A stretch of DNA of 64,000 nt from Candidatus Omnitrophota bacterium (GTDB taxonomy: Bacteria > Omnitrophota > Gorgyraeia > Zapsychrales > Fredricksoniimonadaceae), in assembly GCA_015233675.1 (NCBI GenBank), contig JADFXH010000002.1:206794-270793 (forward strand), in the 5' to 3' direction. Position numbers and translations under genes: made by a program. A model generated the notes under the pieces. It had not been told where the DNA came from, searched no databases, and was given only the letters and a program-made list of their open reading frames with translations. Shown here piece after piece: positions 2,453 through 38,371 of the stretch. Each line of letters starts with the position of its first letter. Within the stretch, counting starts at the first letter, position 1.

Positions 2453-5400
2453 ATGAGCCCCTGTGCCCCGAATATCAATAAAATTCTAATCAAACAATTA
2501 CGGCAAGCTGTTTCTATATTCATTTTGACAGCTTTTATTGCCACTTCGGTCAAAAGTCCAGCCTTTGCCCAATCGGCTGGAGGGGACATGATGCCGCGTC
2601 TGCCGGTGCCTGGGGTTATGGTGCATTTAAGCCCTGAATTTACCCCTGCTTATTTGCAAGGCATAACCATTCATCCGGACAATGCCCTGCAGTTTGATTT
2701 TCTGATCCATAAAGGCGACCAAAATTTAGAAGGTGATCAAAAACAAGAAGAATATAAGAAATTGGTTAAATATTTCCTGGCCTCTTTGACTATTCCCGAT
2801 GAGGACCAGTGGGTCAACCTGTCTCCCTATGAAAAAGATCGTATTATTAAAGATAGTTTCGGAAAAACTGAAATGGGCCGTGACCTTTTGGCTGAAGATT
2901 ATCTGCTCAAACAGATCACCTCAAGCCTGATTTATCCTGAAGATGGCCTGGGGAAGAAATTTTGGGGCAAGATCTATGAGCGCGCCTGGAAAGAATATCA
3001 TACGACGCAGATTCCGGTAAATACTTTTAATAAAGTATGGATTGTGCCCAATCAGGCTTTTGTTTATGAAAGCGGCAACACCGCCTATATTTTTAAAAGC
3101 CATTTAAAAGTGATGTTAGAAGAAGATTATCTGTCATTGTTTAAACACCAAGGTCAATCGGGGCCCACGCCAACCAGGGGACATGTCCCCCAAGGGGACG
3201 TGTCCCCAAGCAGGCTGCCAACCAATAAAAGGCTGCAACTGAAAGCACCCCAGGAGCAACCCGTACACGCCTTAGCCAGTCAGATCATCAAAGAAATCAT
3301 TCTTCCCGAATTAGAAAAGGAAGTCAATGAGGGCAAGAATTTCGCGAACTTGCGGCAAATTTACAGCGGCATGATACTTGCGACCTGGTATAAAAAAGCT
3401 TTAAAGGAATCCTTATTAGGAAAGGTTTATGCAGATAAAGCGAGGCTCAAAGGAGTTGACCAGGACCCTAAAACCAATGAAGAGATTTATCAGCGATATT
3501 TGAAGGCATTTCAAAAGGGGGTGTTTAATTACATTAAGGAAGATGTGGACAAATACACTAATGAAGCTATCCCCAGAAAATACTTTTCTGGTGGTTTCAG
3601 CCGAATCGACAGGGCTATGGTAGGAAGAAGCGACGGCGATGTTGCGATTATCCGCCCGGGCGGTCCCTTCCCCGTAGGGGTAGATATCTCGGGCCTTGCT
3701 TCTGATAAAACTATAGAGGAAGCTACAGTTGCATTTAATCCAGAGGGGGAGGAGGTTAAGTATAATCCTGCTTCGGGGGGAGGCATGGCCATGGCGACAA
3801 AGCAACCATGGACCGTTGATAATTTAACAGAGTTTTTTAATGGAAAAAGAATTTTGATTATATCTGATAATAAATTTTTAGTTAGATTGGTCCAAGTGAA
3901 TAAAATATTGAAAGGAGTTGATGATATCCAAATAGCCGAAGAATTCTTAAAGGAAGGGGATATGAAATTTGACGCGGTTATTTATGATATTAACATGTTT
4001 ACGAATCCAAAGAATTTAGCCGGTTTAATAAATACTCGTTTAGATTTATCTAAAATGCCGATGGTGTTTTTGATGGGCAATTCTGAACAGTATGATAAAT
4101 TTTTAGCTGTGTTTAAAAATGAAGCTTTCTTGGGGCTCTTAATGAAGCCTTTTGACCCGCTTACTATGTTTTCTACGTTAGCTGATAAATTGGAGGCGCA
4201 GCAAATCTCATCAAATAAGGCAATGGCGGATTCTGACCAAGCCATGCGGTCTGGCAGGGAAGAAAGAATGGCACGACGGATCATGCGGGAGCAAATAACC
4301 GAAGGCATGGAAATTCTTCAAAAGCCATTCTTAACAAAAAGGGACTTTAAGAATTTATGGGATATATTAAATTACATAATGCCTTATCATCCGGACCGTA
4401 TAATGAGAGTTCCTTTTCGAGAGTTTAGGGATGCTTATTTATGGGGATTGTCCAGATACGCAAAGGACGCTATGAGCGCGGGTAATGATGAGCCGGCGAA
4501 AGATGCAATTATTGAAATGATAAAGTATCCATATGGCAAAACAAGTGAAACAAAGAAAATTTTGGGATCTCTAATAAATTCTTTTTTAAGACTAAAATCT
4601 GTCGCTGTTGGGGATGCCATCGAGAATGCGGGTGAGCTAAAGGATTTTGGGCCGGTAAGGGATGAATTAAATAGGATTCACAATGATCTTAATGGCCTTA
4701 CAAAACACAGGATTTTTGTAAATATCCAAAATGCGTATTTAAGAAGATTAGATGATATTGCAGTTGAAGCCATGAAAAATCGTGATTTTGAGAAAGCAGA
4801 AAAGGTGTTAAATGAAATGCTTTCTTATCCAAAAGGCAAGATAAGAAATAGCGTTTTTTCAGAACTAAGAAATTCCTATATAGACGGATTATTACAGGAA
4901 GCGGAGGAGATCCTCATTAAAGTTGAAAAGATCATCAGGAATAATGGGGCGATCCAAAAAGGGGATCTTGATCTGATCGTTGCGATAATAGAGTCGATTA
5001 ACCAGACGTATAAATATGGCAATGCTAAAAGAACGAGGGAAGCTGTGACGTATCTCAATGATTATTATTTTGATTTAACAGGGTCATATGCCGTTGGCCA
5101 AAAGAGGGGACAATATAGGGGAAAGATACCCCTGACGATTGCTCAGTTAAGAGAATTTTATGAAGCGATGAGAAAATATGTTCTTGATGCCGTAGATCAG
5201 TTTTTAGGGCCCGAGTATGATGAGGAGGACGGGGTCTATGATGAAGTTTATGAAAGGGATAGCAGGGCCAGATATCAAGACGAGCGATTAACAGAAAACA
5301 GGGTTAGAGAATTTTCTCAAGCCATTGCAAAAGAGGATATTTCAGAGAAAGATTTTATTAATACCGGATTGATGGCAGATGACTTAGAGGACAAAATTAA

Positions 5401-6754
5401 AAATGAAAATTCTGACGCTTTGTTTTATAGTTCGATTATTCTAGGGGTAAATATTGATGCGGCTAAAGAAGCTAGAAAAAGTGCTAGGACAGAAGCCTTT
5501 AGACGCTTATCTAGAAAATGGCATCCTGATGTAAATCGATCTTCTGAAGACAGGGAGGCAGCTGCTCATAAAGTTTTCAAGATGATCAGTAATGCAAATG
5601 ATATTTTAGCATACGATAACGCCATGGTTGGGGTGGGTAAGGACGCGGCTATGTCGGCAACGCCGGAAGATTGGGACAGAAAATTATCTTGGGTGAGCCT
5701 GGAAGCGGGTTATCCTAACAATGAAGAAGCGCTTAAGAAATTGCAAGAGGCAGAAAGAGCCTATTCGAACAAAGAGTTAAGTTACGATGTTTATAGGAAC
5801 TTTAGAAAAGCTTATTGGAATGGGAGATTATCCAGGATGAGAGAAATTGCCGGAGAAGAGTCAAATGAAGAAGCGCTGAAAATATTAGCAGAGGCAAAAG
5901 TAAATTTAAAAAACAATAATGATCAACTTGATTTACAGGATAAACTGGATAATAAGTATTATACGAGTGAGATCCTTACTGCATATGGGCTAGGCAGATC
6001 ATTTAGGATGAGCATAATAGTAGAAGAAATAAAAGCAGGTAAGAACGTGGATAAGAACAAGAAAGAGATGAAGAAGATAAGGAGCGACGCAGAAATAAAT
6101 TTGAAGCAAACTGATTGGTATTCGATGATTGATGATTATTGTCAAATTGTTTTTGGAAAAAAGCCAAGTAAGGTTGAAGCGCTTAAGAATGACTGGAGGG
6201 ATGATTTTTATCCAGCAATGTGGGATGAAAAACGTAAGGTTTTAGATCAATTATTAGTTGTTTATCTTTATCCGGCAATGAGAGACGGAAATATCCCTGC
6301 AGTAAGACTAATATTGTTTTTTGCCCAACGGAAAAAGCTCCTAAAACGAGAGGAAATCGAAGATGTGATGAATAGAGCATATTATGCCTTGGATAGAGAA
6401 AATCTTCTGACCTTAAATCCGTCGGTAGCAGATAATATCAGGAAGAATATATCAACGGTATATATAGCATTGACGGGAAAAAGACCTGGTGACAAAGCTA
6501 TGGTAACTGCGGCATCGCCGATTGCGGACAAGGCTTCTTTAGCGGCAAAGGGCGGTATTGATTTAAACTCCGCTAATTTGCATTTGCAAATTAAACGCGA
6601 CGGACGCGGGGTACCCCTGCCTTTGGCCCAGCAGGACATGGGACGGCTGATGCAAATACAGGGTTTTGTGCCTGAAATTATCGAAATCAAACCAGCCGTT
6701 AACCTGCCGATTTTAAGCGAACTACAGCAGAAGCTGCAGTCTTCATCTGTATAA
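2453..6754 (+). CDS. Giant exported mosaic protein (N-terminal conserved domain, degenerate receiver-like domain, helical repeats, J-domain, conserved C-terminal block)
   Basis: 1433-aa uninterrupted ORF. Signal-like N-terminus ending AFA-QS. Receiver-like ILIISDN..FDAVIYDINMF..LLMKPFDP. J-domain FRRLSRKWHPDVN..KVFKMISNANDILAY. C-terminal KGGIDLNSANLHLQIKRDGRGVPLPL. Confidence 0.85.
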   Translation: MSPCAPNINKILIKQLRQAVSIFILTAFIATSVKSPAFAQSAGGDMMPRLPVPGVMVHLSPEFTPAYLQGITIHPDNALQFDFLIHKGDQNLEGDQKQEEYKKLVKYFLASLTIPDEDQWVNLSPYEKDRIIKDSFGKTEMGRDLLAEDYLLKQITSSLIYPEDGLGKKFWGKIYERAWKEYHTTQIPVNTFNKVWIVPNQAFVYESGNTAYIFKSHLKVMLEEDYLSLFKHQGQSGPTPTRGHVPQGDVSPSRLPTNKRLQLKAPQEQPVHALASQIIKEIILPELEKEVNEGKNFANLRQIYSGMILATWYKKALKESLLGKVYADKARLKGVDQDPKTNEEIYQRYLKAFQKGVFNYIKEDVDKYTNEAIPRKYFSGGFSRIDRAMVGRSDGDVAIIRPGGPFPVGVDISGLASDKTIEEATVAFNPEGEEVKYNPASGGGMAMATKQPWTVDNLTEFFNGKRILIISDNKFLVRLVQVNKILKGVDDIQIAEEFLKEGDMKFDAVIYDINMFTNPKNLAGLINTRLDLSKMPMVFLMGNSEQYDKFLAVFKNEAFLGLLMKPFDPLTMFSTLADKLEAQQISSNKAMADSDQAMRSGREERMARRIMREQITEGMEILQKPFLTKRDFKNLWDILNYIMPYHPDRIMRVPFREFRDAYLWGLSRYAKDAMSAGNDEPAKDAIIEMIKYPYGKTSETKKILGSLINSFLRLKSVAVGDAIENAGELKDFGPVRDELNRIHNDLNGLTKHRIFVNIQNAYLRRLDDIAVEAMKNRDFEKAEKVLNEMLSYPKGKIRNSVFSELRNSYIDGLLQEAEEILIKVEKIIRNNGAIQKGDLDLIVAIIESINQTYKYGNAKRTREAVTYLNDYYFDLTGSYAVGQKRGQYRGKIPLTIAQLREFYEAMRKYVLDAVDQFLGPEYDEEDGVYDEVYERDSRARYQDERLTENRVREFSQAIAKEDISEKDFINTGLMADDLEDKIKNENSDALFYSSIILGVNIDAAKEARKSARTEAFRRLSRKWHPDVNRSSEDREAAAHKVFKMISNANDILAYDNAMVGVGKDAAMSATPEDWDRKLSWVSLEAGYPNNEEALKKLQEAERAYSNKELSYDVYRNFRKAYWNGRLSRMREIAGEESNEEALKILAEAKVNLKNNNDQLDLQDKLDNKYYTSEILTAYGLGRSFRMSIIVEEIKAGKNVDKNKKEMKKIRSDAEINLKQTDWYSMIDDYCQIVFGKKPSKVEALKNDWRDDFYPAMWDEKRKVLDQLLVVYLYPAMRDGNIPAVRLILFFAQRKKLLKREEIEDVMNRAYYALDRENLLTLNPSVADNIRKNISTVYIALTGKRPGDKAMVTAASPIADKASLAAKGGIDLNSANLHLQIKRDGRGVPLPLAQQDMGRLMQIQGFVPEIIEIKPAVNLPILSELQQKLQSSSV

Positions 6755-8231: not shown

Positions 8232-9312
8232 ACAATCGCTCATCGTTAAAACTTCCGTAAAGTTTTTTCAGGCCCCTTTGTTCCAGCCTTTTCGTGTCGC
8301 TTGCGGGCAGCACGATCGTTTGGAAAACATTTTGTTTGCTATAGAGTTGCAAGACGGCACCAAAGGCTATGGCGAGGCAGCGGTAGCCACTCATATTACC
8401 GCAGAAACCCTTGAGCAGACCTTAAAGAATCTGAAAAGTACGGCTCTTTGGCTAAAGGGAAGATCTATCGGGGATTATTTAAATATTTCGGCCCATCTGC
8501 ATGAGCGGCTGGTGGCTAATCAAAGTGCTTTGGCTGCAGTAGAGATGGCTGTTTTTGATGCGCTGACGCGGCATTTGGGCGTCCCTTTATGGCGCCTGTG
8601 GGCATCTAAGCCTAAACGTTTGCGTACGGATGTCACTATCGTCATCGCTGATATACGGGAGACTACAGCTAATGCTAAGGCATTTTATCAAGATGGTTTT
8701 CGCGCTTTTAAAATCAAGATAGGCCGCGACATGGACATGGATTTTAAGCGGGTCACAACGGTTTGCCGCCTAGCTCCTCGTTCGCAAATAATTCTTGATG
8801 CTAATCAAGGATATTCGGCCCGTCAAACCCTGCAATTTTTAAAATCGTTACGCAATGTCGGGATTGTTCCGGATTTAATCGAACAGCCCGTGCCTAAGGC
8901 GGATTGGGAAGCCTTAAAACAAGTGACGCGTGAGTCCAAGGTTTGCGTATGCGCGGATGAAAGCGCTTCGTCGTTAAAAGACGCTCTTCGTATCATCAAA
9001 GAAAAAGCAGCGGGTGCTATTAATGTTAAAATTATGAAAACCGGATTAGTGCATGCGTTTGAAATCAGCCGTCTGGCTCATGCCGCAGGCATTAAACTGA
9101 TGATCGGCGGGATGATGGAATCCAATTTAGCCATGACTGCCTCAGCACATTTAGCCGCAGGTTTGGGCTATTTTGATTTTATCGATCTCGATACGCCGTT
9201 TTTTATCAAGGGCGAGAGCGCTCGCAACCCGTTTTTGTCATCTGATGGGGTCTATGATTTAAGCAAGGTTAAGAGCGGTATCGGAATAATCCCATCTCGC
9301 GTATTTGAATAA
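8224..9312 (+). CDS. Dipeptide (L-Ala-D/L-Glu) epimerase, enolase superfamily (YkfB/YcjG-like)
   Basis: MR/MLE-type motifs FKIKIG, ILDANQGY, LIEQP, CADES, NVKIMKTG. TTG start overlaps the upstream peptidase stop by 8 nt. Confidence 0.8.
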   Translation: MNRQSLIVKTSVKFFQAPLFQPFRVACGQHDRLENILFAIELQDGTKGYGEAAVATHITAETLEQTLKNLKSTALWLKGRSIGDYLNISAHLHERLVANQSALAAVEMAVFDALTRHLGVPLWRLWASKPKRLRTDVTIVIADIRETTANAKAFYQDGFRAFKIKIGRDMDMDFKRVTTVCRLAPRSQIILDANQGYSARQTLQFLKSLRNVGIVPDLIEQPVPKADWEALKQVTRESKVCVCADESASSLKDALRIIKEKAAGAINVKIMKTGLVHAFEISRLAHAAGIKLMIGGMMESNLAMTASAHLAAGLGYFDFIDLDTPFFIKGESARNPFLSSDGVYDLSKVKSGIGIIPSRVFE

Positions 9313-9318
9313 GCGCAA

Positions 9319-9495
9319 GGTCATGAACATAGCATTATTACCTTCCACACGGAATATTTTCGCCGTCTGCTTCGGTTTACAACAAAAATGTTCTAAAGGT
9401 TCTCTTCATTTGGAACATTTTTGTTGTAAAGCCTTGCAGACATTTGGCGAAAAATTCCTGAATGTGTGGAAGGTAATAATGCTATGCTCATGACC
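9319..9495. repeat. Long near-perfect hairpin element, copy 1 (32-bp outer stem, 5-nt bulge TGAAT, conserved ~110-nt inner hairpin)
   Basis: Left arm GGTCATGAACATAGCATTATTACCTTCCACAC (9319-9350) pairs with 9464-9495 with one mismatch. The inner core 9351-9458 is itself a hairpin and is ~90% identical to the reverse complement of 24741-24848. Confidence 0.85.
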
Positions 9496-9652
9496 AAGCA
9501 ATTCTATAGATTACCTAAAAATCTATGATGATTGCCTGCGTCGGTAATGGATAAATTCGTTGCTTCGAAGCGACTTGTCATTTTTAGTCAAAAGTTCATT
9601 GTTGTTTCGGGAATCCCGAGCCGCAGGGCGAGGGATGGCTGAACTTGTTTGA

Positions 9653-9680
9653 GCCAACAGCTTCGAGAGAAGCTGTTGGC
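9653..9680. other. Perfect 12-bp stem / GAGA-loop hairpin in a repeat-rich intergenic region
   Basis: GCCAACAGCTTC-GAGA-GAAGCTGTTGGC read directly. Flanked by partly complementary TGAACTTGTTTGA / GAGTTGTTCA. Confidence 0.6.
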
Positions 9681-9819
9681 GAGTTGTTCAGCCACCGATA
9701 CAACAGAAGAATTTTTGACGTTAAAAAAATGACTTTCAGGAGCGAAAATCCTAAATTCATCCCTTATAATGTCTTCATCATCGTTTGAGTAGAAATCAAC
9801 AGCATTACAGGGACAGACA

Positions 9820-24638: not shown

Positions 24639-24693
24639 AATAATTAGTGTCTGACACTACTTATGTGACACTACTTATGTGACACTATTTATG
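24639..24693. repeat. Composite repeat module 3: AATAATTAGTGTC followed by 3x TGACACTAYTTATG
   Basis: Read directly. Ends 12 nt before the hairpin element at 24706. Confidence 0.85.
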
Positions 24694-24705
24694 TGGAATG
24701 TTTGC

Positions 24706-24878
24706 ATGGATGAATAGGTATTATATATTCGGCACATTCAGGAATTTTTTGCCAAATGTCTGCGAAGATTTACAACAATTTTGTTCCAAATGAAGAGAAT
24801 CTTTAGAACAAAATTGTCGTAAACTGAAGCAGACGGCAAAAATATTCCGTGCCGAATATATAACACCTATTCATCCAT
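24706..24878. repeat. Long near-perfect hairpin element, copy 2 (inverted relative to copy 1)
   Basis: Outer arms ATGGATGAATAGGTATTATATATTCGGCAC (24706-24735) and 24849-24878 pair with one mismatch. Bulge ATTCA. The core is the reverse complement of the copy 1 core. Confidence 0.85.
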
Positions 24879-38301: not shown

Positions 38302-38371
38302 TTCTGGATTCCCGCTTTCGCGGGAATGACAAAATCTATTATGTCATCCCCGCGAAAGCGGGGATCCAGAA
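38302..38371. repeat. 29-bp inverted repeat built from two arms of the GTCATTCCCGCGAAAGCGGGAATCC-type palindromic element
   Basis: TTCTGGATTCCCGCTTTCGCGGGAATGAC (38302-38330), a 12-nt spacer, then GTCATCCCCGCGAAAGCGGGGATCCAGAA (38343-38371). A further GTCATCCCCG terminus lies at 38268. Confidence 0.8.

Follow-up and report, generated by a model that had tools for sequence, protein, structure and literature searches.

Two hairpins in a stretch of Candidatus Omnitrophota DNA raise the question of why the arms of each remain complementary when the arms themselves differ from one hairpin to the other. The stretch (the window) comprises 64,000 nucleotides of contig JADFXH010000002.1, and the hairpins lie at 9319-9495 on the + strand (copy 1) and at 24706-24878, read on the - strand (copy 2). 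An earlier sequence-only reading of the window had described both and offered two causes, selection for secondary structure (in RNA or in DNA) or arm-to-arm gene conversion. We found that they belong to a large repeat family which is very likely mobile and non-autonomous. The interpretation that we prefer as a whole, and consider probable, is that the window hairpins are non-coding, non-autonomous mobile DNA elements which have to fold in order to be copied. In this they would be similar to the doublets of repetitive extragenic palindromic (REP) sequences known as REPINs and to miniature inverted-repeat transposable elements (MITEs).

Both copies fold far better than expected from their composition. 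The minimum free energy of copy 1 with RNA parameters was -104.7 kcal/mol, while its shuffled versions gave -34.4 ± 3.5 kcal/mol (z = -20.4) and none of 200 was as stable; with DNA parameters we obtained -68 kcal/mol (z = -18). Copy 2 folded with -98.3 kcal/mol (z = -21.0). With z about -20 for both, the near-perfect ~175-nt hairpins are confirmed at the positions first given for them. The fold also reproduced the architecture that had been described: an outer stem with one A/C mismatch, a 5-nt and a 4-nt bulge, an internal loop and an 18-nt terminal loop. The list of bulges was right as far as it went, and the fold adds one more bulge of 1 nt in the 5' arm, the A of GGAATA/TTTT. In copy 1 the stem between the two larger bulges, which contains this extra base, reads GGAAT(A)TTTTCGCC / GGCGAAAAATTCC, and inward from the 4-nt bulge follow GTCTGC / GCAGAC, the internal loop, an 18-bp inner stem and the terminal loop. 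Over the inner 119 nt, 14 positions distinguish the two copies (88% identity, close to the ~90% estimated earlier), and among these differences is an exchange of AAA/TTT for TTT/AAA which is mirrored on the opposite arm and so compensated. The outer arms, 32 nt long in copy 1 and 30 nt in copy 2, are only about half identical between the copies, yet 97% complementary within each, as the sequence-only reading had noticed. A search of the window with the family profile (nhmmer) returned these two copies only, copy 1 with E = 1.6e-47 and copy 2 with E = 7.7e-52.

The exact terminal-loop sequence, scanned against one genome per prokaryotic species, was found at 26 loci in 10 metagenome-assembled genomes (MAGs). 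All of these MAGs were labelled Candidatus Omnitrophota or came from the same bins, and a single MAG held up to 7 copies. Since a scan with the loop makes the loop look conserved by construction, metagenomes were scanned a second time with the left mid-stem pattern, which gave at least 120 matching stretches. Together, the two scans yielded at least 121 distinct full copies among the matches listed (copies and loci are labelled L001 and so on; the element measures ~170-185 bp). The further copies that the sequence-only reading had proposed to look for therefore exist as a large multi-copy family. The majority (108/121) fold as a single hairpin with at least 60 bp, and the median copy has 181 nt and 74 bp. 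Among the matches listed, copies came from Candidatus Omnitrophota MAGs and from peat or freshwater metagenomes. Viral contigs were pattern-scanned twice and plasmids were searched by distant blastn, in neither case with an element match, and we rejected a viral or plasmid origin on these grounds. As far as our searches show, the hairpin family is confined to Candidatus Omnitrophota. It is apparently undescribed so far, as a limited full-text search of the published literature found no description of it.

Comparison of the copies shows that the element consists of three modules, an outer stem that varies freely so long as its pairing is kept, a nearly invariant mid-stem and a swappable apex. 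Because the two scans cross-check each other, their conservation can be ranked: the mid-stem is conserved best, followed by the apex and then by the outer stem. All copies found by the loop carry the mid-stem, while the exact loop is retained in only 51 of the 121 full copies. At least three outer-stem subfamilies occur (Table 1), about half identical to one another, and several of them coexist within one genome. The apical module (47-51 nt) comes in at least five types. Outer-stem and apex types are found in many combinations; the modules are therefore reshuffled. What stays fixed are the unpaired features of the mid-stem, with the consensus TKAWT for the 5-nt bulge, WTTT for the 4-nt bulge, and a small internal loop. 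Each of the 102 parsed copies has both bulges; in 96 of them the 4-nt bulge is ATTT or TTTT, and nearly all have T[GT]A[AT]T as the 5-nt bulge. In 101/102 the internal loop was kept as well, the exception being L118, where pairing is perfect. The bulges are under purifying selection.

Orthologous sites that are filled in more than one species often differ in their outer-stem or apex types (e.g. L044/L049, L050/L080, L069/L078 and L040/L091/L115/L071). Such sites must have received repeated insertions as hot spots, or their modules were replaced by recombination.

Evidence for a role of folding comes from the co-evolution of the arms. In an alignment of 106 sequences RNAalifold predicted 52 pairs, 31 of them with double changes, and 96.6% of the 5512 stem cells of the 106 copies were paired. 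Double-changed cells numbered 841, while shuffling of the 3' letters gave 268 ± 19 and none of 500 shuffles reached the observed value. The shuffle control takes no account of kinship among copies; registers slid by 1-3 columns (~45% paired) and the size of the effect are still decisive. The core inference of the sequence-only reading, that the arms are constrained to remain complementary, is thereby strongly supported on more than 100 further copies, and the 106-copy alignment did not bring the copies with uncompensated substitutions that it had named as counter-evidence. Transversion exchanges were frequent (e.g. AU 51 / UA 49; UA 47 / CG 30 / GC 26), with almost no one-sided intermediates. 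Copy pairs at least 95% identical showed 23 single and 3 double stem changes, while in pairs 80-90% identical compensated doubles made up 60-65% of the differences. This means that mismatches arise singly in resident copies, whereas the lineages that persist and spread have their pairing restored.

RNA selected on one strand is expected to tolerate G·U pairs there and to show A·C on the other strand. When both strands were folded copy by copy, the top strand had 272 G·T pairs and the bottom strand 259, which speaks against selection of the RNA on a single strand. In the MAFFT/RNAalifold table A·C had outnumbered G·U, which we considered as a sign of selection on the bottom strand; this excess disappeared in the per-copy folding and was discarded.

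Several lines of evidence show that the copies were gained by insertion. In a single MAG, 7 loop-exact copies are dispersed over unrelated loci. The same genome contains the closest pair (L007/L019), which is 98.8% identical over 171 nt and whose flanks are unrelated and have no junction sequence in common. Flank-to-flank searches turned up orthologous sites that are occupied in one genome and vacant, or occupied by something different, in another; for instance, L146 has a copy where L138 and L088 have none. Contig ends are the location of many copies, which is expected since repeats break assemblies. We did not detect a target-site duplication: the best flanking direct repeat (±4 nt) averaged 3.2 nt versus 3.0 nt in controls with chimeric flanks, and none was present at the inspected junctions of near-identical copies. 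We also considered the outermost helix as an inverted target duplication, with GCACGC...GCGTGC beside a second repeat as the example; uninterrupted ends of the second repeat show the same hexamer variants, and the idea was dropped.

The clearest insertion is that of copy 1 itself, which begins 7 nt past the stop codon, counted from its last base, of a gene for a dipeptide epimerase of the enolase superfamily, the very gap given by the sequence-only reading. The gene order NlpC/P60, dipeptide epimerase, DUF819, thioredoxin, PanD, Def is kept in relatives (epimerase identity ~81-84%), and the spacer between epimerase and DUF819 varies. In L147 and L149/L150 the epimerase stop overlaps the DUF819 start (ATGA; L147:3030-3120, L149:3024-3114). 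The spacer is 57 nt in L148, where it contains a 34-nt mini-palindrome (3086-3119) derived from both ends of a second, unrelated repeat family, and 231 nt in L151, where it is one full copy of this second repeat (3093-3323). In the window it measures 507 nt and holds copy 1, then 40-odd nt, then the second repeat at ~9538-9778. The epimerase open reading frame (ORF) of the window is five codons longer (SRVFE; 9295-9312) and reaches into the inserted DNA, and that of L151 terminates within the second repeat. Hairpin repeats can thus come between genes that overlap and are presumably coupled in translation, and they can give ORFs new 3' ends. Because the closest relatives of the window genome are only ~83% identical in protein, the insertion boundaries cannot be fixed to the nucleotide. 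The sequence-only reading had missed that this is a dispersed DNA repeat gained by insertion, present or absent at orthologous sites including the epimerase/DUF819 junction.

Some copies have decayed. L011:4496 is internally deleted, L128 and L065 are left halves cut short by the second repeat family, and left arms without a right arm were all truncations or interruptions by an unrelated element. In L036 half an element (5338-5400) abuts a group II intron (~3440-5339, + strand; Rfam matches RF02005 at 3476-3707 and RF00029 at 5272-5339) whose end coincides with the apical break. Insertion beside DNA stem-loops is known for some bacterial group II introns, and by analogy the L036 intron may be a targeted insertion beside the hairpin.

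No gene recurs beside the copies, and the recurring "proteins" were translations of the repeat itself. Within the element we rejected a conserved small ORF, since an ATG near the left end opens ORFs that run in a different frame in each copy; the earlier claim that none is conserved holds. A cognate gene between neighbouring copies was rejected too, as the copies of the pairs in L103 and L146 enclose a membrane protein and genes resembling scpA and ruvB (an assignment made from the translations alone). A longer, gene-carrying version with the same ends was not found in ~1 Mb of sequence.

With respect to genes, 73 of the 77 classifiable copies lie between co-directional neighbours. Both orientations occur, 48 sense and 25 antisense (binomial p about 0.01, orthology not corrected for), and the bias relative to GC skew is similar (53 vs 24). 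Since the same bias is seen against genes and against GC skew, transcription and replication are inseparable as its cause. The hairpins were inserted, in both orientations with a 2:1 bias and without target-site duplication, into short intergenic spacers of operon-like arrays, and their arms co-evolve.

As a mechanism we propose copying through a folded single-stranded form, most likely a single-stranded DNA (ssDNA) hairpin that would be exposed at replication. The bulged mid-stem of the folded strand would be recognised by a structure-specific enzyme acting in trans, in the manner of REPINs and their REP-associated tyrosine transposase (RAYT), of the ends of IS200/IS605 insertion sequences (IS), or of attC and IntI. 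Only foldable copies would then propagate, single substitutions would pile up in resident dead-end copies, and the spreading lineages would differ by compensated double changes. Folding-dependent copying would therefore make compensated differences prevail among copies that have diverged. Pairing may now and then be restored by hairpin-templated repair or by template switching as well; this cannot be the main force, because correction would erase the bulges. Because wobble is symmetric and both orientations occur, DNA rather than a particular RNA strand would be the recognised form. We propose this specific route, an ssDNA hairpin with a structure-specific enzyme, only tentatively and by analogy. 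Since most copies lie within operon-like arrays, an inserted element is probably co-transcribed as a ~80-bp RNA hairpin in the mRNA, which may affect mRNA processing or stability as a side effect.

Several points weigh against this interpretation. The ssDNA route is an analogy and not itself evidence. A conserved centre with variable termini is the reverse of REPINs and MITEs, in which it is the ends that the enzyme recognises. Orientation is biased only about 2:1, less than the strong strand bias reported for IS608-type ssDNA transposons. A tblastn search of ~1 Mb of flanking DNA with an IS608 TnpA query found no match, which is a weak negative. Half of the co-directional copies start at most 15 nt after the upstream stop codon, which fits a selected role in the 3' untranslated region (UTR). 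Finally, the differing subfamilies at orthologous sites could reflect hot-spot insertion or replacement by recombination without transposition.

A variant of this picture would see the hairpins as long-lived, mostly vertically inherited replicators, or as a domesticated site, kept by a dedicated, structure-specific Omnitrophota protein for which the invariant bulged mid-stem would be the recognition site. We regard it as a minor possibility. If true, it would amount to a partnership like that of REPIN and RAYT with a different enzyme and an inverted architecture (conserved core, free ends), and to a long hairpin routinely inserted between translationally coupled genes.

Among the other explanations a structured RNA survives best, and we still consider it unlikely. 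The hairpin would either be a small RNA gene or act in cis within operon mRNA, as an RNase III site, by stabilising the 3' end or by spacing the cistrons, and the covariation would result from selection on the RNA at each locus. The very strong covariation, the conserved unpaired features, the location between co-directional genes close behind stop codons and the 2:1 excess of the sense orientation would all agree with this. The antisense third of the copies argues against it, as their transcribed strand has the complementary bulges and loop. So do the near-equal counts of G·U-type pairs on the two strands and the compensated transversions without G·U intermediates. An Rfam scan, which the sequence-only reading had suggested, found no family: no match in the window passed the gathering threshold of Rfam 15, nor did any on the elements of seven loci sampling the apical types, and a scan of the element by E-value returned only sub-threshold microRNA-precursor models, which fit the generic shape of a long hairpin. 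A known RNA family was rejected on this basis. Neither copy carries promoter-like or terminator-like sites, the sole terminator-like site being inside the neighbouring second repeat, and an intrinsic terminator, for which a short GC-rich stem with a T-run behind it is expected, was rejected on this ground as well. Moreover, the element is missing where the orthologous genes overlap and is therefore not needed there, and decayed and interrupted copies occur. On balance the evidence leans against the RNA half of the structural option in the sequence-only reading.

Perfect pairing could also be maintained neutrally, by arm-to-arm conversion, mismatch repair of the extruded hairpin or quasipalindrome template switching, with spread by ordinary recombination or duplication and with neither selection for folding nor a dedicated enzyme. 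Template-switch correction of quasipalindromes is an established mutational process, and the compensated transversions without intermediates also favour this explanation. Three copies appear to record it. In L118 (9674-9863) and in the truncated, partial copy L004 the internal loop has been converted into a perfect TTCGG/CCGAA duplex, and in L027 (3784-3991) the entire right arm mirrors a left arm but has no bulges, while the two outer arms differ. They look like products of hairpin-templated correction or inter-element recombination. Arm-to-arm conversion, the second cause offered by the sequence-only reading, thus seems to occur occasionally, but it is not the whole story since the unpaired features that it should erase survive in ~99% of copies. 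Close copies differ mostly by uncorrected single changes, and correction is therefore slow. Insertion at unrelated loci without flanking homology is also not accounted for. For these reasons we hold the neutral explanation to be quite improbable.

Even less credit goes to a classical MITE, i.e. a deletion derivative of an IS with a DDE transposase that moves by cut-and-paste through its terminal inverted repeats. The element is indeed small, AT-rich, ORF-less, multi-copy and intergenic, it has long inverted repeats, and, as is often the case for MITEs, other foldback repeats are clustered with it. Against this, the target-site duplication and the conserved termini shared with an IS are both lacking; the terminal 25-30 bp, where a transposase would bind, are the least conserved part and vary within one genome. 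A longer transposase-carrying element with the same ends was not seen in the ~1 Mb searched, and a DDE mechanism has no need for arms complementary over their full length. The earlier verdict that this is not a simple MITE therefore stands as regards the absence of a target-site duplication, the variable termini and the lack of a visible transposase, but elements of MITE or REPIN type are still those that it most resembles in behaviour. A folded or cruciform DNA site domesticated by a host protein (for nucleoid organisation, replication or segregation, or attC- or dif-type recombination) would explain the bulged mid-stem that is invariant across many species and the bias relative to GC skew, and extrahelical bases are what IntI reads on attC, but it is very improbable given that copies are scattered between housekeeping genes and not arrayed by an integrase, that attC boxes (5' RYYYAAC ... 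GTTRRRY 3') are absent, and that copy number and position vary freely among related genomes.

In behaviour REPINs are the nearest counterpart of the hairpins, and ERIC/YPAL and Correia elements a looser one, but the hairpins lack defining features of each. Like REPINs, they are non-coding intergenic repeats of ~100-200 nt that form one long imperfect hairpin, occur in many copies without target-site duplication, and cluster with other palindromic units; an ssDNA hairpin intermediate and an enzyme acting in trans are presumed for them as well. Compensatory changes across the hairpin are described as "common" in REPINs, for which an ssDNA intermediate was proposed (PMC3116915). We found such changes in 31 of the 52 pairs, whereas the conserved terminal REPs are missing: REPINs have conserved 16- to 25-mers at the ends and a free spacer in the middle, and our family has variable termini and a conserved centre. 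Its arms are also not GC-rich REP palindromes, and its host belongs to an uncultured phylum, not to Proteobacteria. REPINs are accompanied by a single-copy RAYT gene (for a Y1 HUH transposase) flanked by repeats; ~1 Mb of locus DNA gave no Y1-like match to the IS608 TnpA query.

ERIC/IRU and YPAL elements of Enterobacteria and Yersinia and the Correia elements (NEMIS/CREE) of Neisseria are imperfect palindromes of ~100-170 bp, found between genes or in 3' UTRs in both orientations. They are co-transcribed as RNA hairpins able to alter mRNA processing, and they have a TA duplication and conserved terminal inverted repeats. Our family has neither of the latter two, and any likeness is one of kind only.

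Integron attC sites resemble the element in that structure is conserved rather than sequence, in the imperfect hairpin with extrahelical bases that mark the strand, and presumably in being recognised as folded ssDNA. Conserved boxes at the stem base and a variable top, as attC sites have them, are the inverse of our family, and attC sites form cassette arrays beside intI. We rejected an attC identity because the boxes occur in one subfamily only, and there as GTTAAAC...GTTTAAC, in the inverse order, and because the copies are solitary between housekeeping genes. The ends of IS200/IS605 elements and of their ORF-less derivatives (PATEs) share the absence of a target-site duplication and, as we suppose for the hairpins, mobilisation as ssDNA and a structure-specific recognition directed at imperfect hairpins that have extrahelical bases. 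Differences are that IS200/IS605 has two short, different subterminal hairpins and a fixed tetra- or pentanucleotide target, while the element is one hairpin with no conserved flanking motif seen.

A conserved bulged core with free ends and a free apex is thus the inverse of REPINs, MITEs and attC sites. The family cleanly exemplifies a general kind of element that is already familiar, and it is not a new kind of biology. Its value is that it provides a well-defined repeat, with a usable search pattern and an alignment, for a phylum known almost only from MAGs, whose assemblies such repeats fragment and in which they are usually ignored. It is also an unusually clean natural experiment in the evolution of DNA palindromes, as the stems have been turned over through compensated substitutions in more than 100 copies while three unpaired features stayed fixed. 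The pattern points to a protein that reads folded nucleic acid, and the mid-stem is a handle for finding it. If this partner enzyme is new, the idea of persistent intragenomic replicators drawn from REPIN and RAYT would be extended beyond Proteobacteria. The parts of both window copies are given in Table 1.

Table 1. Parts of the two hairpin copies in the window, and outer-stem subfamilies of the family
Feature	Position	Strand	Basis or remark
Hairpin element, copy 1	9319-9495	+	Folds, nhmmer; outer-stem subfamily GGTCATGAGCAAAG...CCACAC
Copy 1 outer stem, 5' arm (variable)	9319-9350	+	Pairs with 9464-9495, one A/C mismatch
Copy 1 conserved mid-stem, 5' half	9351-9383	+	GGAATATTTTCGCC-GTCTGC-TTCGG-TTTAC...; columns (nearly) invariant in 106 copies
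Copy 1 internal loop TTCGG / GCCTT	9371-9375 / 9431-9435	+	Fold
Copy 1 apical module, type A	9384-9422	+	Fast-evolving compensated inner stem and terminal loop
Copy 1 terminal loop TAAAGGTTCTCTTCATTT, 18 nt	9394-9411	+	RNA fold
Copy 1 conserved mid-stem, 3' half, with the unpaired features	9423-9463	+	RNA fold
Copy 1 4-nt bulge ATTT	9442-9445	+	Fold
Copy 1 5-nt bulge TGAAT, 3' side	9459-9463	+	Fold
Copy 1 outer stem, 3' arm (variable)	9464-9495	+	Fold, arm search
Hairpin element, copy 2	24706-24878	-	Fold, nhmmer, arms; outer-stem subfamily ATGGATGAATAGG...CGGCAC
Copy 2 bulge ATTCA	24736-24740		Letters of the + strand
Copy 2 bulge AAAT	24754-24757		Letters of the + strand
Outer-stem subfamily GATGAACAGCTATTATGTATTCGGCAC			Copy 2 type
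Outer-stem subfamily ATGGTTAAACGGTGTTGTTCCCGAAAC			
Outer-stem subfamily GGTCATGAGCAAAGAAATATTACCTTCCACAC			Copy 1 type

Between copy 2 and the SpoU/RlmB-type methylase gene downstream of it are 60 nt, in agreement with its earlier placement near rlmB, and copy 2 is antisense to its flanking genes. It is adjoined by a tandem repeat of the 14-nt unit TGACACTACTTATG (window 24652-24695, 3.1 copies, 96% match), and motifs with GTGACAC that resemble this repeat were seen near repeats in L088 and L029.

The second foldback family is ~230-240 bp long, has the ends GCATTGTAAGGGATAAATTTGTTCTTTTTGC and contains TTTCGGGAATCCCGAGG in its interior. Besides the copies in the window and in L151, we located it at ~2128-2365 in L014 and at ~446-690 in L008. 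The window copy folds as DNA with -52 kcal/mol (z = -7), and at no fewer than 12 other loci the second repeat stands within 5-10 nt of a hairpin element. A third, REP-like unit, CATTCCCGCGAAAGCGGGAATCCAG, also read as (G)TCATTCCCGCGAAAGCGGGAATCCAG, has a 9-bp GC-rich stem and a GAAA loop. It forms an inverted doublet at 38302-38371 of the window and is frequent on the left side of hairpin copies at a distance of 5-15 nt (e.g. L104, L105, L111 and L051). These genomes therefore contain at least three kinds of intergenic palindromic repeats, which cluster together.

Two further observations are unrelated to the window hairpins or lie outside the window. The window encodes a 1433-aa ORF (2453-6754) whose sole Pfam match is a weak DnaJ domain and whose counterparts in relatives range from 1018 to 2781 residues; it has no relation to the hairpin finding. 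In L044, an Omnitrophota locus, a c-di-GMP-I riboswitch (RF01051, 55 bits) was found at 4126-4202 on the - strand.

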